A stretch of 64,000 nt of DNA, taken from assembly GCA_020633435.1 (NCBI GenBank), contig JACKDP010000001.1, forward strand, positions 517,359 through 581,358, written 5' to 3'. Numbering within the stretch: position 1 is the stretch's first letter; each line of letters begins with the position of its first letter. A program made the position numbers and the translations under genes. The notes beneath the pieces are model-generated. The model saw only the letters and a program-made list of their open reading frames with translations. It searched no databases and was not told the origin of the DNA. Shown one piece after another: positions 37,513-56,800 of this stretch. The stretch is from Myxococcales bacterium. Its GTDB lineage: Bacteria > Myxococcota_A > Bradymonadia > UBA7976 > UBA1532.

Positions 37513-37643
37513 TTACGGGCCCATGGCAGGCGTCTGTACAGCCAAATCGGGCCATTTCCAGCCCGAAACCTGTACAACCTGTACAGCGAGATCGTGGTCG
37601 CTCCTCAACTCGTGCCAGGGCGGGATCACCTTCCTTGGGCTCC

Positions 37644-39357: not shown

Positions 39358-39545
39358 GGCGGTGCTCCTTGCTCTCTGGGCCATGCCATCTACTACGCCT
39401 TCGGCCCCAGTCCTGAGCCCCTCCCCCGGCCCCCGGCGGCACCATCACGTCCCGATTTTTCGGGCTTTGACCCCGTTGCGGCGCGTGTCACCGCGCAGTA
39501 CAACCGCTGTGGCAACTTGCGGCAAACAACGGCGAGGACTGCACG

Positions 39546-39749
39546 GTGCCCGAGTACCTGACCATCGACGAGGTTTGCGAGCTTCTCCAGTTGGGCAAGC
39601 GCACCGTGTACGAGCTTGCCCGGACGGGCCGCTTGCCGGGCGCCGCGAAGATCGGCGGCCAGTGGAGGGTCAACCGGGCCAAGCTCGCCGCCTGGCTGGA
39701 GGCCGGGGGCGAGTTCGCCGCGGTCGAGGGGGGCGAGCGCGACGAATGA
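39546..39749 (+). CDS. excisionase/AlpA-family HTH DNA-binding protein
   Basis: LTIDEVCELLQLGKRTVYELARTGRLPGAAKIGGQWRV; stop overlaps the SNF2 start (ATGA). Confidence 0.65.
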   Translation: MPEYLTIDEVCELLQLGKRTVYELARTGRLPGAAKIGGQWRVNRAKLAAWLEAGGEFAAVEGGERDE

Positions 39750-42595
39750 CGACCCCCTACCATGCGCAGTTCTGGGCCTACACGTTGACCGTACAGGGGT
39801 CGCCGGACTCGGTGGACGGCCTGTCGCGGGCCATCTCGAACGCCCGCGTAGACCTGAACCCGCACCAGGTAGACGCAGCCCTGTTCGCCCTCAAGTCGCC
39901 GCTGTCGAAGGGCGTCATCCTCGCCGACGAGGTGGGCCTCGGGAAGACCATCGAGGCCGCCCTGGTGATCTCGCAGCGATGGGCGGAGCGCCGCAGGCAC
40001 ATCCTCGTCGTGGTGCCCGCCTCGCTGCGGAAGCAGTGGCAGCAGGAGTTGTGGGAGAAGTTCTTCATCCCCTCGGTGGTGCTGGAGCGCAAGTCGTGGA
40101 CGCGGCTCCAGGCCGAGGGCAAGCCCAACCCCTTCGACCTCGGCGATCAGGTCGTCATCTGCTCCTACTACTTCGCCGCCAAGCACCGGGAGGCCGTGGC
40201 CCACGTCCCGTGGGATCTGGCCGTCATCGACGAGGCCCACCGGCTGCGAAACGTCTACAAGAAGGGCAACAAGACGGCGAAGGCCCTGTCCGCGGGCCTG
40301 GCCCACGCCACGAAGCTCCTGCTGACCGCGACGCCGCTCCAGAACTCGCTGATGGAGTTGTACGGCCTCGCCAGCGTCATCGACCCGCACCTGTTCGGTG
40401 ACCCCATCTCCTTCCGCGAGCAGTTCGTCCGCGAGGCGGACGAGGGCGTGCGGAACCGGCTGTTGAAGCAGCGCATCGCCGAGGTCTGCCAGCGCACCCT
40501 GCGGCAGCAGGTGCTGGAGTACGTCCGGTTCACGGAGCGCATCCCGGTGACGCAGGAGTTCTTCGCCAGCGACGCCGAGCAGCGGCTCTACGACGAGGTG
40601 TCCGAGTACCTCCGCCGCGACACCCTGTACGGCCTCCCGTCGGCCCAGCGGACGCTGATGACGATGGTGCTGCGGAAGCTGCTGGCCTCGTCGTCCTTCG
40701 CCATCGGCGGCACCCTCGACGGCCTGTTGTACCGCCTCCGGCAAGTGCAAGAGGACGTGCGCAAGGGCACCGCGGTCGCCCTGCACGATGCCGTGGAGGA
40801 CGACTTCGAGACGGTGGACGAGATCGAGGACGACTGGGAGGAGGACGAGGCCACCGACGCCAACGGCGACGACATCGACCCCGCCCTGCTGGCCGACGAG
40901 ATCGCCATCATCGAGGCGTGCTCCAAGCTCGCCGCGGGCATCCATTCCAACGCCAAGGGCGACGCCCTCCTGCGGGCACTCGCGCAGGCGTTCGAGCAGG
41001 CCGAGGCCGTGGGCGCCGCGAAGAAGGCGGTGGTGTTCACGGAGTCCCGGCGCACGCAGGACTACCTGTACCGGCTGCTGACCGCGAACGGCTACGAGGG
41101 CCGCGTCGTGATGATCAACGGCAGCAACAACGACGAGGCCGCCAAGGCCGTCTACGCGGAGTGGATGACCCGGCACGCGGACGACGGGGTGCCCACCGGC
41201 GCCCGCGCCGTCGATGTCCGGGCCGCCATCACCGAAGCGTTCAAGACCGACGCCACCATCCTGCTGGCGACCGAGGCCGCCGCGGAAGGCGTCAACCTCC
41301 AGTTCTGCTCCCTGGTCTTCAACTACGACTTGCCCTGGAACCCCCAGCGGGTCGAGCAGCGGATCGGGCGCTGCCACCGCTACGGCCAGACCCATGACGT
41401 GGTGGTCGTCAACTTCGTCAACGAGCGCAACGCCGCCGACCGCCGCGTCCTCGACCTGCTGTCCGAGAAGTTCAGGCTGTTCGAGGGGGTCTTCGGCGCC
41501 TCCGACGAGGTGCTCGGCGCCATCGAGTCCGGCGTGGACATCGAGCGGCGCATCGCGGCCATCTACCAGGGCTGCCGCACCGCCGAGGACATCGCCGCCG
41601 CCTTCGACGACCTGCGGGCCGACCTCGACGAGCAGATCACCGCGCAGATGAGCGAGACGCGGCAGCGCCTGCTCGACCACTTCGACGAGGACGTGCAGGC
41701 CCGCCTCCGCGTCCACCGCGACCTGGCCCAGGCGTCGCTCGACGAGAGGGGCCGGATGCTGTTGAACCTCACCCGGCACGAGCTTGGGGACGACGCCTCC
41801 TTCGCACCTGACCGGCCCCGGTTCGAGTACCACGGCACCGCGGCTCGTCGCGGGTGGTACAGCCTCGACTGGAAGGCGGCGGACGCCGAGGGCCTGGTCT
41901 TCTACCGCATCGACCACCCCCTCGCGCAGGGCATCGTCGAGCAGGCCCGCCAGCGACAGCTTCCCGTGCAGCACCTGGCCTTCGACTACGGCGCCTACGG
42001 CACGTCGGTCGCGGTGCTGGAGCCGTACATCGGTCGCCGGGGCTGGCTGGCGTGCAGCCTGCTGACGGTGAACTCGGTGGCCGACGAGCAGTTCGTCGTC
42101 CTGGCCGCGGTGACCGACGACGGCGAGGTGCTCGACGCCGAGTGGTGCCGACGCCTCATGCGCATCGGAGCCGCCGCCGAGGGAACGCCCGAGGCGCCCG
42201 CGGATCTGGAGCCCGCGGTCACCGGCCAGGTCGAAGGCCACCTGCGCGACGTGGAGGCCCGCAACGGGCGCTACTTCGACGCCGAGGTGTCGAAACTCGA
42301 CCGCTGGTCAGACGACCTCAAGCTCGGCCTGGAGCGGGAGTTGAAGGACTTGGACGCCGAGATCCGGGCGAAGCGCAAGGAGTCCGCGGTCGCCATCTCA
42401 CTGGCGGACAAGCTCACGGCGCAGCGGGACATCAAGGCGCTGGAGCAGCGCCGGAACCGCAAGCGGCGGGATCTGTACGAGGAACAGGACAAGATCGACG
42501 AGCAACGGGCAGCACTCATCGACGGGATCGAGCGGCAGCTTCGCACCACACATGCGGTGCAGCGCCTGTTCACCGTCCGGTGGAGCATCCGATAG
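39746..42595 (+). CDS. SNF2-family helicase
   Basis: 949 aa: LADEVGLGKTIEA (motif I), VIDEAHRLRN (DEAH), LLLTATPLQNSL, C-terminal helicase motifs and coiled-coil tail. Confidence 0.85.
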   Translation: MTTPYHAQFWAYTLTVQGSPDSVDGLSRAISNARVDLNPHQVDAALFALKSPLSKGVILADEVGLGKTIEAALVISQRWAERRRHILVVVPASLRKQWQQELWEKFFIPSVVLERKSWTRLQAEGKPNPFDLGDQVVICSYYFAAKHREAVAHVPWDLAVIDEAHRLRNVYKKGNKTAKALSAGLAHATKLLLTATPLQNSLMELYGLASVIDPHLFGDPISFREQFVREADEGVRNRLLKQRIAEVCQRTLRQQVLEYVRFTERIPVTQEFFASDAEQRLYDEVSEYLRRDTLYGLPSAQRTLMTMVLRKLLASSSFAIGGTLDGLLYRLRQVQEDVRKGTAVALHDAVEDDFETVDEIEDDWEEDEATDANGDDIDPALLADEIAIIEACSKLAAGIHSNAKGDALLRALAQAFEQAEAVGAAKKAVVFTESRRTQDYLYRLLTANGYEGRVVMINGSNNDEAAKAVYAEWMTRHADDGVPTGARAVDVRAAITEAFKTDATILLATEAAAEGVNLQFCSLVFNYDLPWNPQRVEQRIGRCHRYGQTHDVVVVNFVNERNAADRRVLDLLSEKFRLFEGVFGASDEVLGAIESGVDIERRIAAIYQGCRTAEDIAAAFDDLRADLDEQITAQMSETRQRLLDHFDEDVQARLRVHRDLAQASLDERGRMLLNLTRHELGDDASFAPDRPRFEYHGTAARRGWYSLDWKAADAEGLVFYRIDHPLAQGIVEQARQRQLPVQHLAFDYGAYGTSVAVLEPYIGRRGWLACSLLTVNSVADEQFVVLAAVTDDGEVLDAEWCRRLMRIGAAAEGTPEAPADLEPAVTGQVEGHLRDVEARNGRYFDAEVSKLDRWSDDLKLGLERELKDLDAEIRAKRKESAVAISLADKLTAQRDIKALEQRRNRKRRDLYEEQDKIDEQRAALIDGIERQLRTTHAVQRLFTVRWSIR

Positions 42596-42603
42596 GAGCG
42601 GGG

Positions 42604-44427
42604 ATGTCGAAGAAGACGAAGCTGGAACTGACCTGGATCGGCAAGGACAAGCGGCCCCGCCTGGAGCCGCGCATCCTGCTCGAAGATCCCGAACTGAGCT
42701 ACGCCGCCGACCATCGGGTTCGGCAGGGCGACATCTTCGACAACATGCTGATCCACGGAGACAACCTGCTGGCTTTGAAGGCGCTGGAGCAGGACTTCAC
42801 CGGCGCCTTCAAGTGCGTCTACATCGACCCTCCGTTCAACACCCAGCAGGCGTTTGAGCACTACGACGATGGCGTGGAGCACTCGGTCTGGCTGTCACTC
42901 ATGCGCGAGCGCCTCTCCATCGTCCACCGGCTCATGCACCCCGAGGGGACGCTGTTCGTCCACATCGACGACAACGAGCTTGGCTACCTGATCGTCCTCC
43001 TCGACGAGGTGTTCGGGCGCACCAACCGCGTGTCCATCGTCACATTCAAGCAGGGCTCGGCGACCGGCCACAAGGCCATCAACCCCGGCTGCGTGACGAC
43101 CACGAACTTCGTGCTGATGTACGCCAAGGACAAGGCAGCCTGGAAGCCGCGGAGGGTCTTCACGGCTAGGGAGCGAGACAATCGCTACAACCAGTTCATT
43201 CCGAACATCGGCGACCACCACTCCAAGTGGCGAATCGTGACGCTGATGACCGCCTTCGCCGCCAGCCAGGGGGTCACGGAGACACAGGCCAGGGGTCTGG
43301 CTCGCAAGCAGCCCGACCAACTGGACGAGTTCGTGAAGGACAACGGGCCGAGCGTGGTGCGTCTCGCAAGGCCGTCCTACGACGCCGTCAGCAAGGCTGC
43401 CCAGGCGCTCATCGACGAGTCGAACGCGAACCCCGAAGTGGTGTTCCACCTCCCGCGGGAGGGGCACAAGGACTTCTACTTCATCCGGGGCGAACGAATC
43501 CTGTTCTACAAGGACAAGCTCAGGGAGATCGACGGGCAGTACGTTGCGGGTGAGCCGCTCACGACGCTCTGGGACGACCTCCTCTCCAACAACTTGCACA
43601 ACGAAGGTGGGGTCAGCTTCCCCAAGGGGAAGAAGCCCGAAGCCCTGATCAAGAGGGTCATCGACCTGTCCACCGAGCCCGGTGACTGGGTGCTCGACTC
43701 GTTCGCAGGCTCGGGCACGACGGGGGCGGTGGCCCACAAGGCCGGTCGAAGGTGGGTGATGGTCGAACTCGGTGACCACTGCCATACCCATGTCCTTCCC
43801 CGGCTCCGAGCGGTTATTGACGGGGCCGATTCCAGCGGGAGCACGCAGGCAACCCGATGGAAAGGCGGCGGCGGCTTCCGCTTCTGCCGCCTCGCGCCCT
43901 CCCTACTGGAGGAGGACAAGTGGGGCAACTGGGTCATCAACCGGGCCTACAACAAGGAGATGCTGGCGGAGGCCATGTGCAAGATCGAGGGCTTCCGCTA
44001 CGAGCCGAGCCCGACCATCTTCTGGATGCACGGCCAGTCCACCGAGACGGACTACCTCTACGTCACCACGCAGACCCTGACCCACGAGCAGTTGCAGGTC
44101 ATCAGCGCGGAGGTCGGTGACGAGCGCACGTTGCTCATCTGCTGCTCGGCCTTCCGAGCGCGGCTCGACCAGTTCCCGAACCTCACGGTGAAGAAGATCC
44201 CCGCAGCGGTGCTCGAACGCTGCGAGTGGGGCAAGGACGACTACTCGCTGAACGTCCAGACGGTCATGGGAGAGGAGCCCGAGGCGCCCGAGCCTGAACC
44301 CGACCAGTCCGCGGGCGCCACCGTGCCGCCGCCATCGTCGAAGAAGCGCAAGGGCCGCAAGCCGAAGATGCAGGAGTTGCCGCTGTTCGCCGCGGCCCAC
44401 CATGGCAAGTCGGGAGGTGACCAGTGA
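42604..44427 (+). CDS. Type III R-M Mod-like N6-adenine DNA methyltransferase
   Basis: DPPF motif (CVYIDPPFNT) precedes the SAM motif (VLDSFAGSGTTG). Confidence 0.85.
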   Translation: MSKKTKLELTWIGKDKRPRLEPRILLEDPELSYAADHRVRQGDIFDNMLIHGDNLLALKALEQDFTGAFKCVYIDPPFNTQQAFEHYDDGVEHSVWLSLMRERLSIVHRLMHPEGTLFVHIDDNELGYLIVLLDEVFGRTNRVSIVTFKQGSATGHKAINPGCVTTTNFVLMYAKDKAAWKPRRVFTARERDNRYNQFIPNIGDHHSKWRIVTLMTAFAASQGVTETQARGLARKQPDQLDEFVKDNGPSVVRLARPSYDAVSKAAQALIDESNANPEVVFHLPREGHKDFYFIRGERILFYKDKLREIDGQYVAGEPLTTLWDDLLSNNLHNEGGVSFPKGKKPEALIKRVIDLSTEPGDWVLDSFAGSGTTGAVAHKAGRRWVMVELGDHCHTHVLPRLRAVIDGADSSGSTQATRWKGGGGFRFCRLAPSLLEEDKWGNWVINRAYNKEMLAEAMCKIEGFRYEPSPTIFWMHGQSTETDYLYVTTQTLTHEQLQVISAEVGDERTLLICCSAFRARLDQFPNLTVKKIPAAVLERCEWGKDDYSLNVQTVMGEEPEAPEPEPDQSAGATVPPPSSKKRKGRKPKMQELPLFAAAHHGKSGGDQ

Positions 44428-47400
44428 ACCGCCTCGTCAACACCATCTCGGGTCGTCTGAGCCTCCGGCCCCCGCAGCGCCAGTCGCTGGAGATCCTCGA
44501 CCGCATCTGCGAGATCGCTGACCCGACCAAGGCGACCGATCTCGCAACCGCGCTCGGGATCATCAAGTCCGAGTACCCGTCGGTCACCGACTTCGAGCGG
44601 GACTTCCCCTCGCTGTGCTTCGCCCTCGCCACCGGCGTCGGCAAGACCCGGCTCATGGGCGCCTTCATCAGCTACCTCTACCTGACCAAGCGAAGCCGCC
44701 ACTTCTTCGTGCTGGCGCCCAACCTGACCATCTACAACAAGCTGATCGCCGACTTCACCCCCGGCACGCCCAAGTACGTCTTCCAGGGGATCTCGGAGTT
44801 CGTGACCGCCCCGCCGGTCATCATCACCGGCGACAACTACGAGAGCGGCGTCGGCGTCCGAGAGGAGGCCCGGCGCCAGATGGGCCTGTTCCGGCCCGGC
44901 GGCGAGGATGCCGTCCACATCAACGTCTTCAACATCAGCAAGTTCAACAAGGACACGGGGGGCAGGAAGGGCTCGCCCAGGATGCGGCGCCTGTCGGAGT
45001 ACATCGGTGAGAGCTACTTCGACTACCTGGCCGGGCTCGACGACCTGGTGGTGCTCATGGACGAGGCCCACCGCTACCGCGCCGACGCGGGTATGAAGGC
45101 CATCAACGAGTTGAAGCCCATCTTGGGCCTGGAGTTGACGGCGACCCCCTTCACCGAGTCGGCGAAGGGGCCGGTGGCCTTCGGCAACGCCATCTACGCC
45201 TACTCGCTGGCCGAGGCCATCGTGGACGGGTTCGTGAAGGAGCCCGCGGTCGCCACCCGCAAGGACTTCGACGCCAGCCAACTCGACGACGCGAAGTTGG
45301 AACGCATCAAGCTGGAGGACGGCGTGCGCTTGCACGAGCAGGTCAAGGCCGACCTCCAAGCCTACGCCGCCAACACCGGGCGCCCCTACGTCAAGCCGTT
45401 CATGCTGGTCATCGCCCGCGACACGACGCACGCCTCGGCCCTGATCGACCTGTTCAAGTCCGAGACGTTCTTCGAGGGGCGCTACGCCGACCGCGTGATC
45501 GAGGTTCACTCGGCCCTCAAGGGCGAGGAGAAGGAGGAGACGGTTGAGCGGCTGCTGGCCGTGGAAGACCCCGCCGAGCAGACGGAGATCGTCATCCACG
45601 TCAACATGCTCAAGGAGGGGTGGGACGTAACGAACCTCTACACCATCGTCCCGCTGCGGGCCGCCAACGCCCGCACCCTCATCGAGCAGTCCATCGGTCG
45701 CGGCCTGCGGCTGCCCTACGGCAAGCGTGTCCGCAAGTACGGCCTGCCCCCCACCCACCCTGCCGACCGGCTCACCATCGTCGCCCACGACAAGTTCCAA
45801 GAGATCGTGGACGAGGCCAACCGCGGTGACTCCATCATCCGCCGCATCGACACCATCTACATCGACCCGGAGGAGGCCGCCGACGCTCCGAAGCCGGTCG
45901 AGGTGCCCCCGCTGGTCGAGCAGATTCTTGGCGGAGCCGACCGGCCTACGGTGCCGGGCCTCGGCCCCGCCCCCGCGGGTGACCCGGCCCAGGGCACCGC
46001 CCCCACCCTGCCGACCAAGAAGACGCCGACGTTCCTGACGCCCACGGCGAAGGCGGTGGCGAAGGCGACGCTGACGGCGATCACCAAGAAGACCACGTTG
46101 CCGTCGGCGAAGACGCTTCTGCAACCGGAGCAGCAGAAGAAGCTGGTCGAGGAGGTGAAGGCGCAACTTCCCGACCAGCAGGAGCTACCGGGCATCGAGT
46201 CGGAGATCGAGGAGGTCGTCAAGCAGGCCACCGAAGCCTACGTTGACCTCTCCATCGACATCCCCGAGGTGACCGTCGTGCCCACCGGCGAGGTCACCAT
46301 CGTCTACGCCGACTTCGACCTCGACACGTCCAAGCTGCCTGCGCTCCAGCCCGTCGAGCGGGACATCTACATCCAACACCTGGCGAGCCACGAGCAGCAG
46401 CAGTTGTCTTCCGGCGGTGGTGGTGTCGGCTACGAGCGGCGCCTGGAAGATCACGTTGTCCGGGCGCTCATCGACTTCGACGACGTGGACTACGACGGCA
46501 ACGCCGACCTGCTCTACAAGCTCGCGGGCCAGATGGTCGCCCACCTCCAGGGCTACCTGCCCGACGAGGAGGCCGTGAAGAACGTGCTGGTCTACTACCA
46601 GTCGCGGATCGGCAACCTCGTCCACGGCCAGATGCTGGCCCACCGGCACGAGTTGACGACCGGCTACGAGGTGAAGGTGCTGTCCGGGCACCGTCCGCTC
46701 CAGCCCTCGGTGATCAAGCTCAAGCCGAGCGAGTCCCCCCGGAACTTCCGGGCGCCGGTGGACGACAAGCGCCGCATCCCGCAGATGGTGTTCGGCGGCT
46801 TCTCGAAGTGCTTGTACCCGCTCCAGAAGTTCCACTCGGACTCGGAGCGCCGGTTCGCGGTGCTGCTGGAGATGGACAAGGCCGTGCAGAAGTGGGTGAA
46901 GCCTGCGCGGGCGAACTTCCAGATCGTCCTCAAGGGCGGCTCGCTCTACGAGCCGGACTTCGTGGTCGAGGCCGACGACGCCTTCTACATCGCCGAGGTC
47001 AAGGCCGAGGGCATGGTGCAGGAGGCCGACGTGCTGGCGAAGGCCGAGGCCGCCGCGGTGTGGTGCAGGTCGGCGACGCAGGAGGGGGCGGGCGCCAAGC
47101 CCTGGCACTACCTGCTCATCCCCGCGGACAAGATCGCCGAGAACGCCTCGTTGGCGTGGCTGGCGAAGCAGTACGAGCACAAGGCCAGCGCCCCCGCCGA
47201 GGTCGTGTCCGAGGACGCGGGCGCCAAGGTGCTGCCGTTCAAGAAGCTGGAGGGCACGGAGATCAGGCCCTTCGAGAACTGCGTGCCGCTCTACGCCGAC
47301 CTCAGGATCGCCGCGGGCCGCTTCGGCGAGGAGCTGGCCGTGGACGCGGTGCCCCAGCAGGGCGAGGTGGAGAACCCCGAGGACTACGAGTGGGTCGCCT

Positions 47401-47744
47401 ACCGGGGGAGTTCCCGGCCCCGTCGCGGCCTGTTCGTAGCCCAGGTGGTCGGCGAGTCCATGAACAAGCGCATCCCCAACGGCGCCTGGTGCGTGTTCAA
47501 CCTCGAACACGGGGCCGATGGCGAAGGTGAGATCGTCCTCGCCCGGCACGACGAGATCCACGACGGCGACCTCGGCCAGTTCACCGTGAAGTTCTACCAG
47601 CGCGAGGTGCTCGACGACGACGGCGTGCGGATCACGCTGCGGCCCTCGTCCAGCGACCCGCAGTTCAAGAAGCCCATCGTGCTGGAGAACCTGGCCGAGG
47701 GCGACCTGCGGATCGTGGCCGAGTTCGTCGAGGTGCTGCGGTAG
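44424..47744 (+). CDS. Type III Res-like helicase-endonuclease fused to a LexA/UmuD-like S24 domain
   Basis: 1106 aa: Walker A (ATGVGKTRL), DEAH (VLMDEAHRY), PD-(D/E)xK-like nuclease motif (EPDFVVEADDAFYIAEVKAEG), then about 150 aa resembling an S24 peptidase (GESM, TVKF); GTG overlaps Mod stop. Confidence 0.8.
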   Translation: MNRLVNTISGRLSLRPPQRQSLEILDRICEIADPTKATDLATALGIIKSEYPSVTDFERDFPSLCFALATGVGKTRLMGAFISYLYLTKRSRHFFVLAPNLTIYNKLIADFTPGTPKYVFQGISEFVTAPPVIITGDNYESGVGVREEARRQMGLFRPGGEDAVHINVFNISKFNKDTGGRKGSPRMRRLSEYIGESYFDYLAGLDDLVVLMDEAHRYRADAGMKAINELKPILGLELTATPFTESAKGPVAFGNAIYAYSLAEAIVDGFVKEPAVATRKDFDASQLDDAKLERIKLEDGVRLHEQVKADLQAYAANTGRPYVKPFMLVIARDTTHASALIDLFKSETFFEGRYADRVIEVHSALKGEEKEETVERLLAVEDPAEQTEIVIHVNMLKEGWDVTNLYTIVPLRAANARTLIEQSIGRGLRLPYGKRVRKYGLPPTHPADRLTIVAHDKFQEIVDEANRGDSIIRRIDTIYIDPEEAADAPKPVEVPPLVEQILGGADRPTVPGLGPAPAGDPAQGTAPTLPTKKTPTFLTPTAKAVAKATLTAITKKTTLPSAKTLLQPEQQKKLVEEVKAQLPDQQELPGIESEIEEVVKQATEAYVDLSIDIPEVTVVPTGEVTIVYADFDLDTSKLPALQPVERDIYIQHLASHEQQQLSSGGGGVGYERRLEDHVVRALIDFDDVDYDGNADLLYKLAGQMVAHLQGYLPDEEAVKNVLVYYQSRIGNLVHGQMLAHRHELTTGYEVKVLSGHRPLQPSVIKLKPSESPRNFRAPVDDKRRIPQMVFGGFSKCLYPLQKFHSDSERRFAVLLEMDKAVQKWVKPARANFQIVLKGGSLYEPDFVVEADDAFYIAEVKAEGMVQEADVLAKAEAAAVWCRSATQEGAGAKPWHYLLIPADKIAENASLAWLAKQYEHKASAPAEVVSEDAGAKVLPFKKLEGTEIRPFENCVPLYADLRIAAGRFGEELAVDAVPQQGEVENPEDYEWVAYRGSSRPRRGLFVAQVVGESMNKRIPNGAWCVFNLEHGADGEGEIVLARHDEIHDGDLGQFTVKFYQREVLDDDGVRITLRPSSSDPQFKKPIVLENLAEGDLRIVAEFVEVLR

Positions 47745-48168: not shown

Positions 48169-48245
48169 TCCCTTAGTTTCGAGCATTACTTGGGGTGAGG
48201 GATTTGCTCGCTTGCCTGGGTAGCGTGCCTCGCAGGAGGTGCAAC

Positions 48246-49553
48246 ATGCCCAACTTCCCGAGCCGCATCGACATCGCCAACTCGCCCGAGTATTTCCCGA
48301 TCACGGCGCTCATCGCCGCGGGCCTGTGGCCCGACCTGACTCCGCCCGCCAAGGCCCTGCTGCCCGTCCTGTGGGACTTCCACCGGGAGTACCCCGACGC
48401 CTGCCACCCGAACCGGAAGACCCTCGCCCGGCTGTCGGGCATCAGCCCGCCCTCCGTGTCGAACGCCCTGACGGTGCTGGAGGACATCGGCATCGTGCAG
48501 ACGATCCAGACGCCGGGGCCGAGGCCGAACACCTACAAGCTCAAGTGGACGAATCTCCGGGCGCCGAAGAAGGCTGCCGCCGACACCGGATCGCCCTACC
48601 GGCGTCCGAGTGCGGACTGGGAACTGCACATGGGGACTGACGCCGAGGGCCATGCGGTCGCCAAGTACGAGCGCAAGGGGGGTGGGCTCCACCGCATGTC
48701 CGACGGCTGCTTCATCCGGGGCCAGGTCGAGATGGTGATCCACGACCTGCTCGTGGCCTGGGGCGTTCCCCACTGGTCGGAGGTCGGGTACTGCGACCTC
48801 GGCATCAAGCTCCGGCACGCGAAGTCCGGCGACCTCAACCGGCAGGCCACCGTGGACTTCGTGGTGGCGCCGGGCTTGCTCGTCGAGCGCCTCGGCCTGC
48901 CAGCGACCCAGGGGTCGGCGAAGAAGTACCGGGCCAAGTCCGCCGCGAAGATGAAGGCCGCCCGGAAGGCCGGGTGGACGGTGCTGACCATCGAGCCTGA
49001 CCAGCGGCCCGGCGACTGGCTGCTGGAGCCCATCAGGAAGGCGTGGGCCGACGCGACCATCGACGAGGCGACCCGCCTCCGGCGGCTCCTCCAAGGCGCT
49101 GGGAAGCACGAGGAGTCGCACGGTCCGAGCCGGAAGCTCGACGCCCACATCGAAGATGCGAAGGCCCGGCTGGCGGGCAAGAAGGAGCCCCGCAAGAGCC
49201 GCGGCCTGACCATGCAGAAGCGCGGCGAACATGGGTTCCCCGTGACGTACCGCTGCGACCCCATCATCGTGCTGATGGAGCAGGCCCGCCCCGCACCCGA
49301 GCCCGAGGATGACCTCGACGACTGGTTCGACGAGGTGCCGAGCGCCTACGAGCCGCAGCGCCCGCCCGACCTGCCCGCTCCCGACGAGAGGATGCTCGGG
49401 CGGCTCCGCGACCTGGACGACGAGATCGCCGACCTCGACGACCAGATGGCGGCCCTCGACGATGACAGCGACGACTACCAGGCCCTGCTGACGCAGAAGT
49501 GGGAACTCGAAGGGAAGAAGGGCGACCTGGAGGCCCAGTGCTACATGCGGTGA
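48246..49553 (+). CDS. hypothetical protein with N-terminal winged-helix-like region (possible replication/maintenance function)
   Basis: AGGAGG RBS before ATG 48246; HTH-like NRKTLARLSGISPPSVSNALTVLEDIGIV; acidic C-terminal tail. Confidence 0.45.
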   Translation: MPNFPSRIDIANSPEYFPITALIAAGLWPDLTPPAKALLPVLWDFHREYPDACHPNRKTLARLSGISPPSVSNALTVLEDIGIVQTIQTPGPRPNTYKLKWTNLRAPKKAAADTGSPYRRPSADWELHMGTDAEGHAVAKYERKGGGLHRMSDGCFIRGQVEMVIHDLLVAWGVPHWSEVGYCDLGIKLRHAKSGDLNRQATVDFVVAPGLLVERLGLPATQGSAKKYRAKSAAKMKAARKAGWTVLTIEPDQRPGDWLLEPIRKAWADATIDEATRLRRLLQGAGKHEESHGPSRKLDAHIEDAKARLAGKKEPRKSRGLTMQKRGEHGFPVTYRCDPIIVLMEQARPAPEPEDDLDDWFDEVPSAYEPQRPPDLPAPDERMLGRLRDLDDEIADLDDQMAALDDDSDDYQALLTQKWELEGKKGDLEAQCYMR

Positions 49554-49744
49554 GGGTGCCTCGACGCGGTGCCCGCTTCGGCCTCCCGCTCGCGCACGAC
49601 CGCTTCGAGGTCGTACCGGACGGCGCCGCGGAGCCTCACCACGGGGATCTGCCCGTCCCGAGTCATGCGGCGGACCGTCGAGAGGCTCACGCCGAGGGCG
49701 TCTGCAAGCTCCGTGGCGGTGAGCAGGCGGTGCATGTTGCTCAT
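49541..49744 (-). CDS. excisionase-family HTH protein
   Basis: 67 aa from ATG with GGGGAGG RBS; LLTATELADALGVSLSTVRRMTRDGQIPVVRLRGAVRY. Confidence 0.6.
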   Translation of the reverse strand: MSNMHRLLTATELADALGVSLSTVRRMTRDGQIPVVRLRGAVRYDLEAVVREREAEAGTASRHPHRM

Positions 49745-49990
49745 GTTGGCCTCCCCGGAAGTCGAGTCCATGCACAGATCGCGGCCCATAGGACGACCAA
49801 CCGGGTCGAAACGGTCAGCGACGGTCACACAGTCGCCGCCGCGGCCTCGGGGCGTCCAGAACCGTCGCTGCGGATGGTTCTCGCCGGGCCAACCGTGGGG
49901 GTTGGGACGCCGAACGGTGGGGGTTGGCCGAAGGTAGGTGGATTCGGCCCGGTGCGGCCCGCGGGGTTGTGGCCCGCGGACATGCGCGGT

Positions 49991-50629
49991 TCAGCGGGCT
50001 TCGGCGACGGCGACTTCTGGCCCACCCACCGGACGGGCCTCGGCGAGCCTGCGTCGCAGGGTCGTCCGCGGGAGGCCGAGCATGTCGGCGACCTCGCGGA
50101 CGCTGTGCCCTTGGGCGATGAGGGCCTGGGCTGCACGAAGGTCGAGGCCACGCCGCGGGCGCCCGAACTTCACGCCACGCTCGCGGGCGCGAGCGACGCC
50201 TGCCTGGACGCGCTCTTGGATCAGGGCGTGCTCAAGTTCGGCGACCACCGCGGCGAGCGTGAACAGCGCCTTCCCGAGGGCGGTGGTCGTCTCGATGTTC
50301 TCCCTGACGGACACGAACTCGACCCTGCAACGGCGGAACTCGTCGAGGGCCTCCAGCAGGTGCTGGGTCGAGCGGGCGAACCTGTCGAACCGCCACACCA
50401 TCACCACGTCCACCTCGGCGCCGCGGACGGCGGCCATGAGGCCGTCCAGGCCGGGCCGGGCCTCGGTGGTGCCGGACACGCCGTCGTCGATGAACTCGTG
50501 AACGACCTGCCAGCCGCGCTGCGCGGCCACTCGGCGAAGGTCATCAAGCTGGAGCCCCACGTCCTGCCCGTGCCCGGCGGTGCTCACCCTGGCGTACAAC
50601 GCCGCCCGCGTCTTCCGGCTCGTCGCCAT
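49991..50629 (-). CDS. serine recombinase (resolvase/invertase family)
   Basis: AALYARVSTAGHGQD (catalytic Ser region), C-terminal HTH. Confidence 0.85.
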   Translation of the reverse strand: MATSRKTRAALYARVSTAGHGQDVGLQLDDLRRVAAQRGWQVVHEFIDDGVSGTTEARPGLDGLMAAVRGAEVDVVMVWRFDRFARSTQHLLEALDEFRRCRVEFVSVRENIETTTALGKALFTLAAVVAELEHALIQERVQAGVARARERGVKFGRPRRGLDLRAAQALIAQGHSVREVADMLGLPRTTLRRRLAEARPVGGPEVAVAEAR

Positions 50630-50690
50630 CCCGTCCTCCGCGTCGTCTCCCCCAACTACGGAGTGGGCCGGAAGTCTGAGCCCCGCGGGC

Positions 50691-50785
50691 TTCTGGCCCG
50701 GAGATTCTCGGGGGCGGGCGAGATTCTCCCTGATCGGGTTCTCGGCGTCTTGGCAGGCACCTTCCGCCGCGGGAAACGTCGCCAG
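50691..50785. repeat. three direct copies of GAGATTCTC, followed at about 50848-50882 by a palindrome CCGATC-N8-GATCGG
   Basis: Copies near 50691, 50710 and 50776, upstream of the serine recombinase gene. Confidence 0.5.
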
Positions 50786-51016
50786 CGAGATTCTCGACCG
50801 TCAGGATCGGTTCTTCGGCGAGAAGTTCCCTCTCCGGCGTGTCAGAACCGATTGAAAACCGATCTGGGTTCGGATCGGGGGGCGCGATCCGGGGACTCCG
50901 GGTCACGGACATTTTGCGACCGAGCGGGCCAACGGTCTGCGGCAGGGGGTTGACTCGGGCACACCCTCGGGCCAAGATGTATCCATTGGATACAGGGCGC
51001 CTGATGGCGCAGGGAG

Positions 51017-51587: not shown

Positions 51588-52072
51588 CCGAACATGCGCA
51601 GCTCGACATCCCCGCCTTGGTGGAGGAGATCAACGCCGCCGAGGACGACCCGATGTGGAAGGCGTGGACGAAGGATCGCCTGCGGCTCCAAGACCAACTT
51701 CACGAGCTTCGCGCCGTCCGAGATGCTCTCGCCCGCAAGCTCCGGGCATTGGCGCCCACGACGCCGGGCGGGGACAAGAGGCCCATGACCCGGCGGGAGC
51801 AGCGGATGGCGATGGGCGGCGGCGGCCTGTGGCCGCTGGCCCAGGCTGCGGAGATGCTGCCCATGAAGGACAACGAGGCGAGGGGCTGGCTGCGCAACGA
51901 AGGGCTCGTCGGCGACCTGGCCGGGCGTGAGGTCGTGCATTGGGGCCGCGTGCTCGACGCGCCCTACGCCACGAAGGATGAGGCGCCGTCGGTGCCTGCG
52001 AAGCAGGAGACACGGCGCCGGAAGCCGCTCCCGCGGGTGCGCCTCGGTGGCTCGTCGGGGGCGTCACGATGA
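51584..52072 (+). CDS. hypothetical protein
   Basis: ATG overlaps the previous stop; stop overlaps the integrase start. Confidence 0.4.
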   Translation: MTEHAQLDIPALVEEINAAEDDPMWKAWTKDRLRLQDQLHELRAVRDALARKLRALAPTTPGGDKRPMTRREQRMAMGGGGLWPLAQAAEMLPMKDNEARGWLRNEGLVGDLAGREVVHWGRVLDAPYATKDEAPSVPAKQETRRRKPLPRVRLGGSSGASR

Positions 52073-53202
52073 GCCCTCCAAGGAGTGCGCGACCCAAGCC
52101 CTTCTCGCTCGACATGATCAAGTGCCGGATCGTCCGCGGGCCGCACCCGGACGACCCGAACCGTTGGTACTGGCAGGCGGTCACCTACGGAGACGGTGAG
52201 CAGCGCACCATCTGGACGGGTTGGGGGTCGGTCGAGGAGGTGAAGGCCGCGCTGGCGCCGTTGCTGATGGGGATGCAGGCGGCCCCGTCGCGCCGTGAAG
52301 ACCGGGTGTCCACTGTGCAGGATCTCCTTGAGGTCTGGTTGGCGTGGCAACTCGGCCAACCGAACCTGAGCGAAGGGCGCAAGCTCAACTCGAAGAAGGA
52401 GGCAGAGCACGTCGCCGCCGTGATCGGTGATGTGCTCATCCTGCGGCTCGACACGACGACCCTGACGGAGTACCAGCGCGTGCGGCTGCGCGAGGGGGCC
52501 TCGACCGGCGTGATCCGCAACGAGATCAGCACCGTGATCCAGGCGTGGAACTGGGGCGGGGAGCGTGGGCTCGCACCGGAGCGGCGGCTGCGACGCCCCC
52601 GTTTGCAGCACAAGTCTGTGCGGAACGACTACGTTCCCGACCTGGTGGAGTTCTGGAAGGCCGTGGACGCGCTGCCCGACTCCAGACCCTGGGCTCGCAC
52701 CATGCTCCTCCTGCTGGGTGCGACGGGGGCGAGGCCAAGCGAGATCGCCGCCCTGACCTGGGAGGACATCCACTGGCGACGCCGTACCGTCCGTCTGGAC
52801 GGCAAGACCGGGAAGCGCCTGGCAGTCGTGAGCCAAGAGGTCTTGGACGAGTTGGCGCCGCACCGCCCCGACCCCGCGACTGGCCGCGTCCTCTCCGTGA
52901 GCTTGACCACGGCACGGGTGGACATCCGCAAGATCCTGCGGGACGCCTGCGTTGCGGCCAACGTGACGCCGTTCCTCCCGATGTCCATCCGCAAGATGGT
53001 CGAGAACGCGATGTTCGACGCTGGGGCCGACCCCGGCGTCGTCTCCCGGCAGCTTGGGCACACGCCGGAGGTGTCCTTGAGGCACTACCGCAGGGCGAAG
53101 TCGGCTCGCGTGGACGAGGTTCTCGCTCGTGCGGGCATCGGCACCAGGCCGGACGGCAACGTCGTGTCGCTGGCCGAGCACCGCAAGGCCAAGGACTCGT
53201 GA
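52069..53202 (+). CDS. tyrosine-type site-specific integrase
   Basis: Catalytic-domain motifs (LLGATGARPSEIAALTWEDI; LGHT...SLRHY) with the Tyr near the C-terminus. Confidence 0.85.
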   Translation: MSPPRSARPKPFSLDMIKCRIVRGPHPDDPNRWYWQAVTYGDGEQRTIWTGWGSVEEVKAALAPLLMGMQAAPSRREDRVSTVQDLLEVWLAWQLGQPNLSEGRKLNSKKEAEHVAAVIGDVLILRLDTTTLTEYQRVRLREGASTGVIRNEISTVIQAWNWGGERGLAPERRLRRPRLQHKSVRNDYVPDLVEFWKAVDALPDSRPWARTMLLLLGATGARPSEIAALTWEDIHWRRRTVRLDGKTGKRLAVVSQEVLDELAPHRPDPATGRVLSVSLTTARVDIRKILRDACVAANVTPFLPMSIRKMVENAMFDAGADPGVVSRQLGHTPEVSLRHYRRAKSARVDEVLARAGIGTRPDGNVVSLAEHRKAKDS

Positions 53203-53288
53203 CCTGTACAGCCCGACCTGTACAGCCGCAGGAGCGGCTGTCGTAACATGCTGAAACCATGCGACAAGCTGGCACAGGTGGCGGCGTT

Positions 53289-53318
53289 CAACATCAAGTG
53301 GAAGCCGGGCAACGAGCC
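53289..53318. repeat. attR: 30-bp direct repeat, right copy
   Basis: caacatcaagtggaagccgggcaacgagcc, followed in frame by the likely original gene tail (...NEPTTNLYA, stop). Confidence 0.8.
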
Positions 53319-53406
53319 GACGACGAACCTGTACGCGTGAGCGGTTCGGCAAGGGTTTGATTTGATTGCAAATCTCGCCCGCAGCGTGCTGGCGGGGGCC
53401 GGCCGC

Positions 53407-55497
53407 TCAGGACGTGAGGCGGTCGAAAGCCTGCTGGCGGGCCAGGAGCGTAGGCGACGGGGGCTCGCCCGCGAGGCGGTCGAAGCGGTCAGTGAGCAAC
53501 TTCTGCATCAGCTCGGTATGCGCCGCCGGCAGGCGCTCGAAGTGGGGCCAGAGGAGGTCCAGCGCCTCGTCCGCGGCGGCGCGGGCCTCGGCGGCCCGGC
53601 CGAGGGCAGCGAGGACGTCGCCGCTGCTGTCCATCGCGTTTGCAAGGTCAGGCTCGAACGCGTCCGGACGCGACGACGCAAGACGGCGATAGATACCCAC
53701 CGCCTCCGCCGTCGCTGACAACGCCTCCTCAAGACGACCCAACGATGAGATGTCACCGCCCAGGTTGTTGAGGCTCATGGCAAGGTCAGGCTCGAACGCG
53801 TCCGGACGCGACGACGCAAGACGTCGATACACGTCCACCGCCTCCGCCGTCGCTGACAACGCCTCCTCAAGACGACCCAACGATGAGAGCCGATTGCCCA
53901 GGTTGACCAGGCTCATGGCAAGGTCAGGCTCGAACGCGTCCGGTCGCGACGACGCAAGATGCCGATACACGTCCACCGCCTCCGCCGTCGCTGACAACGC
54001 CTCCTCAAGACGACCCAACGATGAGAGCCGATTGCCCAGGTTGACCAGGCTCATGGCAAGGTCAGGCTCGAACGCGTCCGGACGCGACGACGCAAGATAC
54101 CGATACACCTCCACCGCCTCCGCCGTCGCTGACAACGCCTCCTCTCGACGACCCAACGACGAGAGGTCAACGCCCAGGTTGTTCAGGCCACCCGCAAGGT
54201 TCGGCTCGAACGCTTCAAGACGCGACGACGCAAGACGGCGATAGATACCCACCGCCTCCATCGTCGCTGACAATGCCTCCTCAAGACGACCCAACGATGA
54301 GAGTCGATTGCCCAGGTTGTTCAGGCTCATGGCAAGGTCTGGCTCGAACGCGTCCGGACGCGACGACGCAAGACGGCGATCGAGACCCACCGCCTCCGTC
54401 GTCGCTGACAACGCCTCCTCAAGACGACCCAAAGATGAGAGCCGATTGCCCAGGTTGTTCAGGCTCGTGGCGAGGTCAGGCTCAAACGCGTCTGGACGCG
54501 ACAGTGCAAGACGGCGATAGATACCCACCGCCTCTGTCGTCGCTGACAACGCCTCCTCTCGACGACCCAACGAGGAGAGCCCAATGCCCAGGTCGGTCAG
54601 GCTCATGGCAAGATCGGGTTCGAACGCGTCCGGACGCGACGACGCAAGACGGCGATAGATACCCACCGCCTCCGCCGTCGCTGACAACGCCTCCTCTCGA
54701 CGACCCAACGACGCAAGGTCACGGCCCAGGCTGGTCAGCGCCCTCGCAACGTCTGCGTCCGGGCGTGCCGACGCGAGGCCTCTGTAGGACCCCACGGCTT
54801 CCGTTGACGCCGATAACGCTTCTGCGACCTCGTTCGCCAGGCCCATGTGCCCACTCCGCACCAAGGCCGCCAGCGCGCCAACCATCGCGTCGAAGCGCGC
54901 CGGATCCTCGGGAGCAAGCGCGAGCGCCGCTCGCGCCCGTCGCTCGGCGAGCTCCACCTCGGCAGGCGAGGCCCCATCTGACCGTTGCACGGGCGAAGTA
55001 ACATCGGGCTGCGAGACAGGAACCGGCGCGACCATCGGCTCAACAAGCAGGGTGTTGATAGACCAGAGATCGGGCGCAGCCAGCCGCACTACCGGCCGGG
55101 CCCACGCGGGCATGGCCACGACCAGGGCGTGCAGCCCGGATCGGCGCAGCGGCTCTCGGTGCTCGTTCCAGCGTTGTGCCGCGTTGAACCATGCGGTTCG
55201 CCAATCCTGCTCCGGACCAAAGGCCTCGCACCAGACCACGCCCCCTCTGGGCGCCGCCAGGATGCGACCGAGTGCGTCGCTCAGGTCCCCCGGATGCTCG
55301 CAGAGAACGGTCTCGATCGGCCAGCCACGGGCACCCGCCAGCGCCATCGTTCGGGCCCGAAGAATTCGAGCTGGAAAGCGGTCTGCCGCGACCACCGTCG
55401 CGATGACGAACCGATCTGCGAAATCCAGGAGATCACTGAGCAATTCCCAGGGCCGCTCCTCCAGGAGCGGCTGCGCTGCGAGGTGGTCTTCGGCCAC
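53407..55497 (-). CDS. TPR-like repeat protein (about nine 46-aa repeats), partner of the upstream NTPase
   Basis: Repeat unit RPDAFEPDLAMSLNNLGNRLSSLGRLEEALSATAEAV.VYRRLASS; GTG start 4 nt after the NTPase stop (ORF extends to 55554). Confidence 0.65.
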   Translation of the reverse strand: MAEDHLAAQPLLEERPWELLSDLLDFADRFVIATVVAADRFPARILRARTMALAGARGWPIETVLCEHPGDLSDALGRILAAPRGGVVWCEAFGPEQDWRTAWFNAAQRWNEHREPLRRSGLHALVVAMPAWARPVVRLAAPDLWSINTLLVEPMVAPVPVSQPDVTSPVQRSDGASPAEVELAERRARAALALAPEDPARFDAMVGALAALVRSGHMGLANEVAEALSASTEAVGSYRGLASARPDADVARALTSLGRDLASLGRREEALSATAEAVGIYRRLASSRPDAFEPDLAMSLTDLGIGLSSLGRREEALSATTEAVGIYRRLALSRPDAFEPDLATSLNNLGNRLSSLGRLEEALSATTEAVGLDRRLASSRPDAFEPDLAMSLNNLGNRLSSLGRLEEALSATMEAVGIYRRLASSRLEAFEPNLAGGLNNLGVDLSSLGRREEALSATAEAVEVYRYLASSRPDAFEPDLAMSLVNLGNRLSSLGRLEEALSATAEAVDVYRHLASSRPDAFEPDLAMSLVNLGNRLSSLGRLEEALSATAEAVDVYRRLASSRPDAFEPDLAMSLNNLGGDISSLGRLEEALSATAEAVGIYRRLASSRPDAFEPDLANAMDSSGDVLAALGRAAEARAAADEALDLLWPHFERLPAAHTELMQKLLTDRFDRLAGEPPSPTLLARQQAFDRLTS
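53510..54890. repeat. 138-bp tandem repeats (about 9 copies), coding
   Basis: The motif gtcaggctcgaacgcg recurs at 138-bp spacing; central copies nearly identical. Confidence 0.8.
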
Positions 55498-55501
55498 CGG
55501 G

Positions 55502-56800
55502 CTAGCTCGCGGCCTGTGATTCCAGACGGTCTGCGAGATCGAGAACGACGTCACGAACGATGGGGTGGACGTCGTACCACTCCGACCCGTTCTGGTAGCA
55601 GAGCACCAGGTGGCTGTCGAAGTACCGCGCCAGGCTGCCCAGGCCCTCCAGGTCCCTCAACTCGGCCTCGTGGGAGCGAGCGATCCGAGCCAGCCACCGA
55701 ACGTCCTCATGAGGAATCGGGGTGAACTGGGCCCGCAAGCGCTCCAGGGCAGCCCGGCGCGCGTCGGCCGATGCCGGCAGCGTGCGAGCCTCCAGGGCGA
55801 CGGTCTGCAGGACGCGGACGAGGTCGCGCAGGTGCCCGCCCGTCGCCAGAATCAGCTCCTCGAGAGCGTCGCGATCGCCCAGAACCACCGACCAGTCCGT
55901 GCGCTTGCCGACGAGCTGGACGAGACGCTCGATCCCAGGCGCGTAGGGCTGGCCGTCGCCATCGTCGACATAGGCCCGGACCTTCTGAGCGGGCAACGTC
56001 AGCAGGCCCGCTCCCGAATACGGGCTGCCGATGTTCGGCCGGCGGATGCGGAGCCAGGGCGGGACCGTATAGATGACATGGGTGGATGGCAGCTTGAGCT
56101 TGTCATCGTGGTCGGCGAACAAGCGTTCGAGTGACTCATGCACCCGCGCCTCGGTCTCATTGGTCCCACGGGCATGCTCGACCGAGTCGACGAGGACGAC
56201 GAGTGCCGTGCCCGGTCGGGCTGCCTCCAGCGCGAGTACACACTCCGCGACAAACCCACGCACCTCCCTGGCGAACGCGCCCAGGCTGGTCCCGAGCGCC
56301 TTCTGCACTTCCTGGCGAAAGAGCGGGTTGCTCTTGAGCTCTACCTTCATCCCCGCGAGGCTCACGTCCTTCAACGTGACGATGGTCCCGGTGACGAAGC
56401 CCCAGAGGCGCTGGCCGAGCGCGGCTCGCGCCGGGCTCTCCGGCAGGAGCGCTTCGTCGGTGAGCTTCTCGGCCAGGGCACCACAGAGGGCCAGCAGGAA
56501 GTCGGTGATGTCGATGGGGGTGTGGAGATCCAGGTAGTCCTCCACGTCGATGAGAACGACCGTGTAGTCCTCAGCGCCCAACTCACTGCGCAGACGCCTC
56601 AGCTCGGTGCTCTTGCCTGCGCCGCGGTAGCCGGACAGCAGCTGAGCACTCTCGCCCTCGGAGAACAGGATGGTCTCTTTGAGGCGAAGCACGACGTCGG
56701 ACTGGTCCTCGTACAGCGGGTAGTAGCGGGGGTCCTCCGGGTTCAACGGCACGTCAGCCATCTCTCGGAAGAAGCGCTGCCGCCGGTCGCGATCGGTCAT
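55502..56800 (-). CDS. P-loop NTPase (AAA/STAND-like)
   Basis: Walker A LLSGYRGAGKSTEL; Walker-B-like ALVVLVDSVEH; helical C-terminus. Confidence 0.65.
   Translation of the reverse strand: MTDRDRRQRFFREMADVPLNPEDPRYYPLYEDQSDVVLRLKETILFSEGESAQLLSGYRGAGKSTELRRLRSELGAEDYTVVLIDVEDYLDLHTPIDITDFLLALCGALAEKLTDEALLPESPARAALGQRLWGFVTGTIVTLKDVSLAGMKVELKSNPLFRQEVQKALGTSLGAFAREVRGFVAECVLALEAARPGTALVVLVDSVEHARGTNETEARVHESLERLFADHDDKLKLPSTHVIYTVPPWLRIRRPNIGSPYSGAGLLTLPAQKVRAYVDDGDGQPYAPGIERLVQLVGKRTDWSVVLGDRDALEELILATGGHLRDLVRVLQTVALEARTLPASADARRAALERLRAQFTPIPHEDVRWLARIARSHEAELRDLEGLGSLARYFDSHLVLCYQNGSEWYDVHPIVRDVVLDLADRLESQAAS

Follow-up and report, generated by a model that had tools for sequence, protein, structure and literature searches.

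In a 64-kb window of a Myxococcales bacterium assembly (GCA_020633435.1, contig JACKDP010000001.1, positions 517,359 to 581,358; coordinates below are those of this 64,000-nt window), we found an integrative island that carries, besides its terminal tyrosine integrase, an intact gene for a small serine recombinase of the resolvase type with a cluster of repeats and conserved boxes directly upstream. With ~270 bp of upstream DNA (50653-50917), the resolvase gene forms what is most likely an ordinary dimer-resolution and self-regulation cassette, with no sign of a nested element. With moderate confidence, the upstream cluster is read as a res-like site, at which the resolvase would resolve multimers of the excised, replicating circle and would also regulate its own expression. 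Resolvase dimer sites consist of inverted arms around an A+T-rich centre, and the res-like site is favoured because the resolvase is common to all the repeat arrays found, the arms of one conserved box (box B) resemble such a dimer site, and each locus carries a single box B. Accessory resolvase systems are already known from integrative islands, while the element family of Myxococcota in which it was found here is undescribed. The features of the cassette and its upstream region are as follows.

49991-50629, minus strand: small serine recombinase (resolvase/invertase type), 212 amino acids, intact; PF00239 (E=2.6e-44) and a C-terminal helix-turn-helix (HTH)
50653-50684, minus strand: promoter-like GGGCTCAGA-N16-GTAGTTG, just upstream of the resolvase gene; presumed promoter
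50701-50828, minus strand: heptamer array of six to seven GAGAAYC-like copies
50701-50709, 50720-50728 and 50787-50795, minus strand: segments with the GAGAATC heptamers, reverse complement of the plus-strand GAGATTCTC copies
50737-50744, minus strand: heptamer CGAGAACC of the array
50809-50816, minus strand: heptamer GAAGAACC of the array
50820-50828, plus strand: degenerate heptamer GAGAAGTTC
50843-50872, minus strand: candidate core (crossover) site, i.e. box B and its inverted partner
50843-50860, minus strand: box B, GGTTTTCAATCGGTTCTG, 18 nt, ending in the heptamer-like GGTTCTG
50866-50872: weaker inverted partner of box B, CGAACCC
50859-50878: palindrome CCGATC-N8-GATCGG, overlapping the left half of the candidate core site
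50881-50917, minus strand: box A (50900-50917, reverse complement GCAAAATGTCCGTGACCC) and a GATCRCG box (~50883-50890)
50950-50993, plus strand: promoter-like TTGACT-N17-CAAGAT followed by a palindrome, ahead of the operon orf93/HTH_31/orf162/integrase

The resolvase and the repeats upstream of its gene

A preliminary description, made from the letters of the window, had named a resolvase-type serine recombinase and, in ~390 bp upstream of it, three direct copies of GAGATTCTC and the palindrome CCGATC-N8-GATCGG, all of which were recovered at the positions given. The recombinase is no truncated remnant, as the PF00239 match is full length (profile positions 1-144 of 145) and both the C-terminal HTH and the catalytic motifs are in place. 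The motifs ALYARVST, WRFDRFARS and IQERVQAG are kept across 20 relatives, and we take YARVST and DRFAR to contain the counterparts of R8/S10 and D67/R68/R71, the catalytic residues in gamma-delta resolvase. For the HTH, HTH_8 (27.2 bits) and HTH_23 (24.6 bits) both scored at or above their cutoffs, and a GRPR-type arm (FGRPRR, residues 154-159) lies ahead of it. Among solved structures, Gin invertase (2.7e-21) is the closest relative, followed by gamma-delta/Tn3 resolvase (~1e-17), and the protein is 100% identical to an NCBI 'recombinase family protein' of a Myxococcales metagenome-assembled genome. A ribosome-binding site, GGAGGA, is found 4 nt ahead of the ATG. The keeping of an intact catalytic domain across the family suggests selection for catalysis. 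Frameshifted or truncated resolvase copies were seen in the related loci L074, L073, L076, L077 and L080-L085, and the cassette thus decays in some elements.

The intergenic region upstream of the resolvase (50630-51016) measures 387 bp. The three exact plus-strand copies of GAGATTCTC are the only ones in the 64 kb, compared to 0.13 expected from shuffles, and 0 of 100 shuffles reached three. On the resolvase strand the 9-mer reads GAGAATCTC, and the recurring unit is the heptamer GAGAAYC, often with a C before it, found four times in the 400 nt upstream of the resolvase, where the rest of the window would predict 0.08. Two of the three 9-mers fall within a larger unit, GCGAGATTCTC-N3/9-GATCGG(G)TTCTYCGGCG, that is present twice, at 50718-50747 and 50785-50820. 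The palindrome CCGATC-N8-GATCGG was found once, with 0.02 expected, and the stretch that holds it is variable among homologs. In the terminator scan the palindrome CCGATCCGAACCCAGATCGG with a T run on the minus strand came out as a weak terminator-like hairpin; a role of the palindrome as a terminator or structured RNA was rejected, with 0 pairs by RNAalifold over 20 homologous regions and no match in Rfam.

Promoter-like motifs are found on both sides of this region. The one next to the resolvase (50653-50684) gave no match in a sigma-70 consensus scan. A GGGCTCA-N16-18-GTAGTG motif is kept upstream of the resolvase in L003, L017, L025, L026, L030, L074, L088, L089 and L172, and may be a family-specific promoter or operator. 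In several loci it also faces the integrase side on the opposite strand, as read in L003 and L024. On the far side of the region, 24 nt ahead of orf93, a perfect 15-nt palindrome, GTATCCATTGGATAC (GTATCCA-T-TGGATAC, 50979-50993), could be the operator of the Xre-type HTH_31 protein encoded in the integrase operon; this palindrome is not conserved in relatives.

Conservation of the boxes and the heptamer among relatives

For comparison we used 165 loci with recombinase relatives that were 40-77% identical, taken from genome and metagenome collections and exact-protein look-ups. The upstream comparison was made without P0002 and P0003 (81-83% identical), and L086 (77%) contributes only 44 nt of upstream DNA. 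Enough upstream DNA for the box scan was present in 134 of the 165 loci, and a box was counted as conserved when at least 14 of its 19 positions matched. By this measure the 19-nt box GGTTTTTCAATCGGTTCTG is kept in 21 of the 134 loci, 120-290 nt upstream of the resolvase gene. An alignment of 20 of these box regions covers 93 nt, has no gaps apart from two single-base columns, and shows a nearly invariant TTT.CAA.CGGTT. The heptamer forms the outer arm of box B, with a weaker, GRAAC-like inverted partner ~25 bp away, and between these inward-facing outer arms lies the region's only A+T-rich stretch. Box B is unique: no second copy was found in the 64-kb window at up to three mismatches, nor in either orientation in 15 related loci, each of which had one copy.

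A second box, consisting of an A/T run and a TGCAGGTTGAA-like part, lies ~53 nt (about five helical turns) upstream of box B at a spacing that is fixed across the 20 loci, and the GATCRCG box stands between box A and box B in the 93-nt alignment. RNAalifold found no pairs and no consensus RNA structure in the alignment of the 20 regions. Together with the conservation at fixed spacing, this leads us to view boxes A and B as sites read at the DNA level.

Over the 400 nt upstream of the resolvase, the box-bearing loci have 3.0 copies of GAGAAYC per kb vs. 0.23 per kb elsewhere, i.e. a 13-fold enrichment (Poisson P=5e-19), while no enrichment upstream was found in the box-less loci (0.24 vs. 0.24 per kb). 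Arrays upstream of the resolvase were found in L024 (six heptamers), L025 (four), L008 (three) and L026, L088 and L089 (two each), in both orientations and with varying spacing and number, although the resolvases of these loci are only 50-66% identical to the one in the window. The repeats are thus not missing from homologous elements, the outcome that the preliminary description had named as refuting, but recur upstream of homologous recombinases, and the res or crossover site that it had offered as one option is, judging from the sequences compared, the best reading of them. No protein other than the resolvase is shared by every array-bearing locus, and the small proteins on the integrase side are unrelated to each other. 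In the viral collection a single match was found (62% identity), lacking box B, and no relative above 53% identity was found among the PLSDB plasmids.

A proposed res-like site and how it would work

According to the favoured reading, resolvase dimers would bind heptamer-ended sites, with the core around box B (50843-50872) and with the GAGAAYC array (50701-50828), including the three GAGATTCTC copies, serving as accessory sites between the core and the promoter-like motif. The tyrosine integrase would excise the island and the replication-initiator-like (Rep-like) protein encoded on it would replicate the resulting circle, as suggested by domain hits; with a Rep-like gene on the island, a multimer-resolution function would therefore be needed. 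The resolvase would then recombine two directly repeated sites in dimers or concatemers, yielding monomers. Since the array abuts the presumed resolvase promoter and separates the divergent operons, resolvase binding would probably also repress transcription, as is the case for Tn3 and gamma-delta. The small HTH_17 gene that follows the resolvase would not be needed for resolution. The placement is that of a res-type site, i.e. a site cluster (50653-50917) directly upstream of the resolvase, with a single box B per locus.

Several observations weigh against this reading. As a yardstick, Tn3 res is ~120 bp long and consists of three dyad subsites (~28, 30-34 and 25 bp) with 12-bp inverted half-sites, the centres of sites I and II being an integral number (4-7) of helical turns apart. 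The layout found here is not the canonical one and spans ~170 bp or more vs. ~120. Dyads of 24-30 bp can be drawn at 50843-50872, 50787-50816, 50720-50744 and 50701-50728, but these choices are not unique and there are more than six half-sites. Depending on the dyad chosen, the centres of the candidate sites lie 57 and ~69-86 bp apart, with 57 bp between the candidates for sites I and II. The Tn3/gamma-delta motif TGTCYNNTA has 0 matches in the window; a resolvase this distant would be expected to recognise another motif. In contrast to a symmetric crossover site, box B shows strong conservation in one half only. Furthermore, L003 (77%), L090/L168 (71%) and L166/L167 (70-72%) have either the box or a diverged form of it without a strict array, and in L003 and L090 this is so even though the recognition helix (PRTTLRRRL) is identical; the array may therefore be dispensable or bound by something else. 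Lastly, replication of the excised circle is predicted from domain matches, and binding and catalysis by the resolvase at these sites are likewise predicted.

A more far-reaching version is that the cassette could be a portable module, repeatedly joined to unrelated integrases in undescribed small replicative defence islands of Myxococcota, with a new serine-recombinase synaptic or regulatory complex through which control of the excision operon would be linked to multimer resolution. Such a complex would comprise a half-conserved, A/T-centred core, a second box five helical turns off and up to ~10 heptamers in either orientation. We consider this version rather doubtful.

Alternative explanations

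The heptamers could instead be nothing but an operator array, i.e. transcription-factor sites of a switch between the divergent resolvase/HTH_17 and orf93/HTH_31/orf162/integrase operons, at which the resolvase (purely as a repressor), the HTH_17 protein or a host factor would bind without any recombination. The array does abut the promoter-like motif between divergent operons, and its heptamers differ between loci in number, orientation and spacing, as is typical of operator arrays; the loci L003 and L090, with their identical resolvase HTH and no array, fit this explanation too. An HTH_17 gene follows the resolvase in L008, L025, L026, L086 and the P0002 contig, but arrays are found also in L024, L030, L088 and L089, where none is directly downstream, and no other small regulator is common to the array loci. 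The intact catalytic domain kept across the family moreover points to selection for catalysis, and the explanation overlaps in part with the favoured one, as Tn3 and gamma-delta regulate and recombine at the same sites. We hold it to be a possible explanation, though an unlikely one. Quite improbable, by comparison, is a replication origin in which the repeats would be iterons, the other option of the preliminary description, bound by the Rep-like protein (48195-49553). Direct repeats in a non-coding region of an element with a Rep-like gene, at the only A+T-rich stretch of the region, would suit an origin, but the units are 7-9 bp rather than 17-22 bp, and in homologs they vary in number and are irregularly spaced in mixed orientation. 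The arrays also occur with different replication proteins (HTH_36 Rep, Prim-Pol) or none that is recognisable, the HTH_36 Rep loci L090 and L168 lack the array, and the region lies 1.1 kb from the rep gene, past two other genes.

A DNA invertase switch would have the recombinase flip a promoter-bearing segment, as Hin, Gin and Pin do, and thereby toggle island genes. The protein comparisons lean this way, with Gin as the best solved relative, 'DNA invertase' as the best PHROG and 'Pin-like' as the JGI label of relatives, and we take the reverse complement of box B (...GATTGAAAACC) to resemble a hix/gix half-site, which is a lead only. There is also a 21-nt, 90%-complementary inverted repeat at 49944-49964 and 52134-52154, whose two arms enclose the resolvase gene, the intergenic region and the first part of the integrase gene. 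However, this repeat is GC-rich, resembles a terminator hairpin rather than box B, and is near chance (~0.1 expected, a rough estimate). With a single box B, both orientations considered, in the window and in every related locus examined, and with two independent assemblies (L001 and L002) in the orientation of the window, we regard an invertase as very unlikely. The suggestion that the resolvase, the repeats and the HTH_17 gene are the remains of a separate transposon or island inside the tyrosine-integrase island, i.e. the composite or nested element of the preliminary description, fared no better and hardly deserves credence. It drew on the presence of two recombinases of different families within one 16-kb element, and resolvases are typical of Tn3-family transposons. 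Against this, the resolvase adjoins an integration gene in relative after relative, be it of the tyrosine type (the window and 10 relatives) or the large serine type (four), and the cassette recurs beside such a gene in ~20 elements; no transposase and no terminal repeats flanking the module were found, and the guanine plus cytosine (G+C) content of the module is the same as in the rest of the island.

Distribution of the cassette and its partner genes

The resolvase and its site were found as a cassette in ~20 Myxococcota elements with varied defence cargo. Integrases were detected with an iterated hidden Markov model in place of tblastn, which had missed diverged integrases; the model may itself miss some. 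A divergent tyrosine integrase lies up to ~2 kb upstream in the window, L003, L009, L011, L024, L025, L026, L030, L074, L166 and the P0003 contig, while a large serine recombinase (545-629 amino acids) takes its place in L008, L089, L090 and L167. In a neighbor-joining tree of the resolvases (no bootstrap) the two partner types are interleaved, and the cassette is therefore independent of integration chemistry, which by these comparisons has been swapped repeatedly within one element family. Exchange of modules by crossover at box B was considered but found no support, as box A and the outward promoter-like motif on the integrase side are kept with both integrase types; the swap points thus lie beyond the candidate core site.

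The adjoining replication genes differ as well, being an HTH_36 Rep in the window, L086, L090, L168 and L030 (in the latter four next to the resolvase), a Prim-Pol in L008 and a RepB_primase in L003. Cargo in relatives includes type I and type III restriction systems, methyltransferases and AbiE. Because the cassette stands beside the integration gene across elements with differing cargo, we interpret it as a conserved backbone part shared by one family of Myxococcota defence islands, which are small, integrative and probably replicative. Such a recurrent backbone, i.e. an integrase of either chemistry, a resolvase cassette and a replication gene, could help to delimit these islands in metagenomes, and the conserved box and heptamer provide concrete candidate binding sites for a new resolvase specificity.

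Comparison with known systems

The nearest parallel is SGI1, a tyrosine-integrase island that replicates after excision and has a serine resolvase in its backbone (PMC12217951). Its resolvase, together with a res site upstream of the gene, has been shown experimentally to eliminate island multimers (PMC12217951). The island described here is similar in having a tyrosine integrase, a small serine resolvase in the backbone and sites in the intergenic region upstream of it, as judged from sequence. It differs in that the res of SGI1 is canonical and Tn3-like (107 bp, with boxes of 28, 30 and 25 bp), whereas the cluster here extends over ~170-270 bp and consists of six to seven heptamers and two conserved boxes, with no Tn3-like motif. 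The host phylum, cargo and replication genes of SGI1 are also unrelated to those of the present island. If the favoured reading is true, the idea that replicating islands carry their own resolvase and res would extend to an unrelated, uncultured phylum; no current view is overturned.

Tn3 and gamma-delta likewise have a small serine recombinase with a C-terminal HTH and a site cluster upstream, between divergent units, that could serve as both recombination site and operator. In contrast to these transposons, no transposase and no terminal inverted repeats are found here, and the motif (GAGAAYC instead of TGTCYNNTA) as well as the number and spacing of subsites are different. Sin of pI9789, beta of pSM19035 and ParA of RK2 share with our case the single site per replicon beside the recombinase gene, although these are plasmid-borne and the present element is integrated. 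Site II of Sin tolerates half-sites in direct repeat, which would fit the mixed orientations of the heptamers. Hin, Gin, Cin and Pin are similar in protein sequence, as seen in the Gin match and the GRPR arm ahead of the HTH, and presumably also in the A/T tract of box B beside GG/CC, as in hix/gix half-sites; unlike in these systems, a second, inverted site was not found, nor anything that points to an invertible segment.

The HTH_17 gene and the adjoining spacer

49541-49744, minus strand: excisionase-family/MerR-like HTH_17 gene, 67 amino acids; PF12728 and TIGR01764
49745-49990, minus strand: non-coding spacer between the resolvase and HTH_17 genes, 81% identical to L086

The excisionase-like HTH gene that had been noted downstream of the resolvase was kept as to its family but not as to its start. 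It matches PF12728 (39.7 bits, cutoff 27), the TIGR01764 'excisionase family' (36.8 bits, cutoff 28.8) and the PHROG 'excisionase and transcriptional regulator' (1.6e-11). The reading frame is open back to a GTG at 49828, which gave the earlier extent of 49541-49828; the start is probably the ATG at 49744, and the gene is called with 67 amino acids also on L001 and L002. Its homolog in L086 is 81% identical. Of the array-bearing loci, only about half have an HTH_17 gene immediately after the resolvase gene. In relatives it usually precedes a large gene, i.e. Prim-Pol in L008 and genes with no Pfam match in L024, L025 and L026. The domain family also takes in AlpA/MerR-like regulators and MADS HTH proteins, and small resolvases are not known to require an excisionase. 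The HTH_17 protein is more likely a directionality factor of the tyrosine integrase or an AlpA-like regulator, and a functional link to the resolvase is uncertain.

The spacer between the two genes is more conserved than the coding DNA that flanks it, with 81% vs. ~77% identity to L086. A GC hairpin follows the resolvase stop, and the spacer also contains two direct repeats of CCAACCCCCACSGTT (49891-49905 and 49913-49927, 22 nt apart; two found vs. 0.26 expected) and one CGAGAACC heptamer (49876-49883). Rfam gave no match for the spacer, which may be a regulatory region or hold an unannotated small RNA or peptide.

The island, its ends and its cargo

37467-37497, plus strand: attL, att repeat copy within the 3' end of an AhpC/TSA-redoxin gene
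37534, 37570 and 37579 (span 37534-37587): CTGTACARC repeats, attL side, just inside the island end
48195-49553, plus strand: replication-initiator-like protein with an HTH_36 domain; PF13730, PHROG 'replication initiation protein' (2.4e-8)
52069-53202, plus strand: tyrosine integrase of the island; PF00589 (E=3.5e-14)
53204 and 53218 (span 53204-53226): CTGTACAGC repeats, attR side, between the integrase stop and attR
53289-53319, plus strand: attR, second att repeat copy, 87 nt beyond the integrase stop

The att repeats at both ends define the segment 37467-53319 as a 15.9-kb integrative island. The direct repeat, CAACATCAAGTGGAAGCCGGG, is exact over 21 nt, or ~31 nt long if one mismatch is allowed. 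The Logan contigs L001 and L002, which are independent of each other, both stop 116 nt past the integrase stop, which maps to ~53318 in the window, i.e. the outer edge of attR. The G+C content drops from 72-81% to 64-70% at ~37 kb. With attL inside the 3' end of the redoxin gene, the island would provide a replacement gene end; a search for tRNA genes found none. CTGTACARC matches six times in the 64-kb window vs. 0.21 expected, and five of the matches cluster inside the island ends, while the sixth (minus strand, 41-49) is unrelated to them. These repeats are likely arm-type sites of the tyrosine integrase. The GAGATTCTC copies were considered for the same role and rejected, since the att ends carry CTGTACARC instead and the GAGATTCTC region is 2.5 kb from attR.

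The cargo (39080-47744) consists of a DrmD-like SNF2 helicase (PADLOC DrmD, 6.7e-203), a type III methyltransferase and a type III restriction enzyme. In the C-terminus of the latter we observed an S24/LexA-like peptidase domain (residues 981-1099), an unusual fusion. The cargo is followed by a small HhH protein and the HTH_36 Rep-like protein, then by the minus-strand HTH_17 and resolvase genes, and beyond these by the plus-strand operon of orf93, the Xre-type HTH (HTH_31), orf162 and the tyrosine integrase.

Directly outside attR (53407-56800, on to ~59000), a 715-amino-acid TPR protein with near-identical tandem repeats is found together with a STAND/AAA ATPase. The DNA of these genes keeps the lower G+C content, at 65-69%, and the stretch may represent another island next to this one, or what is left of such an island.

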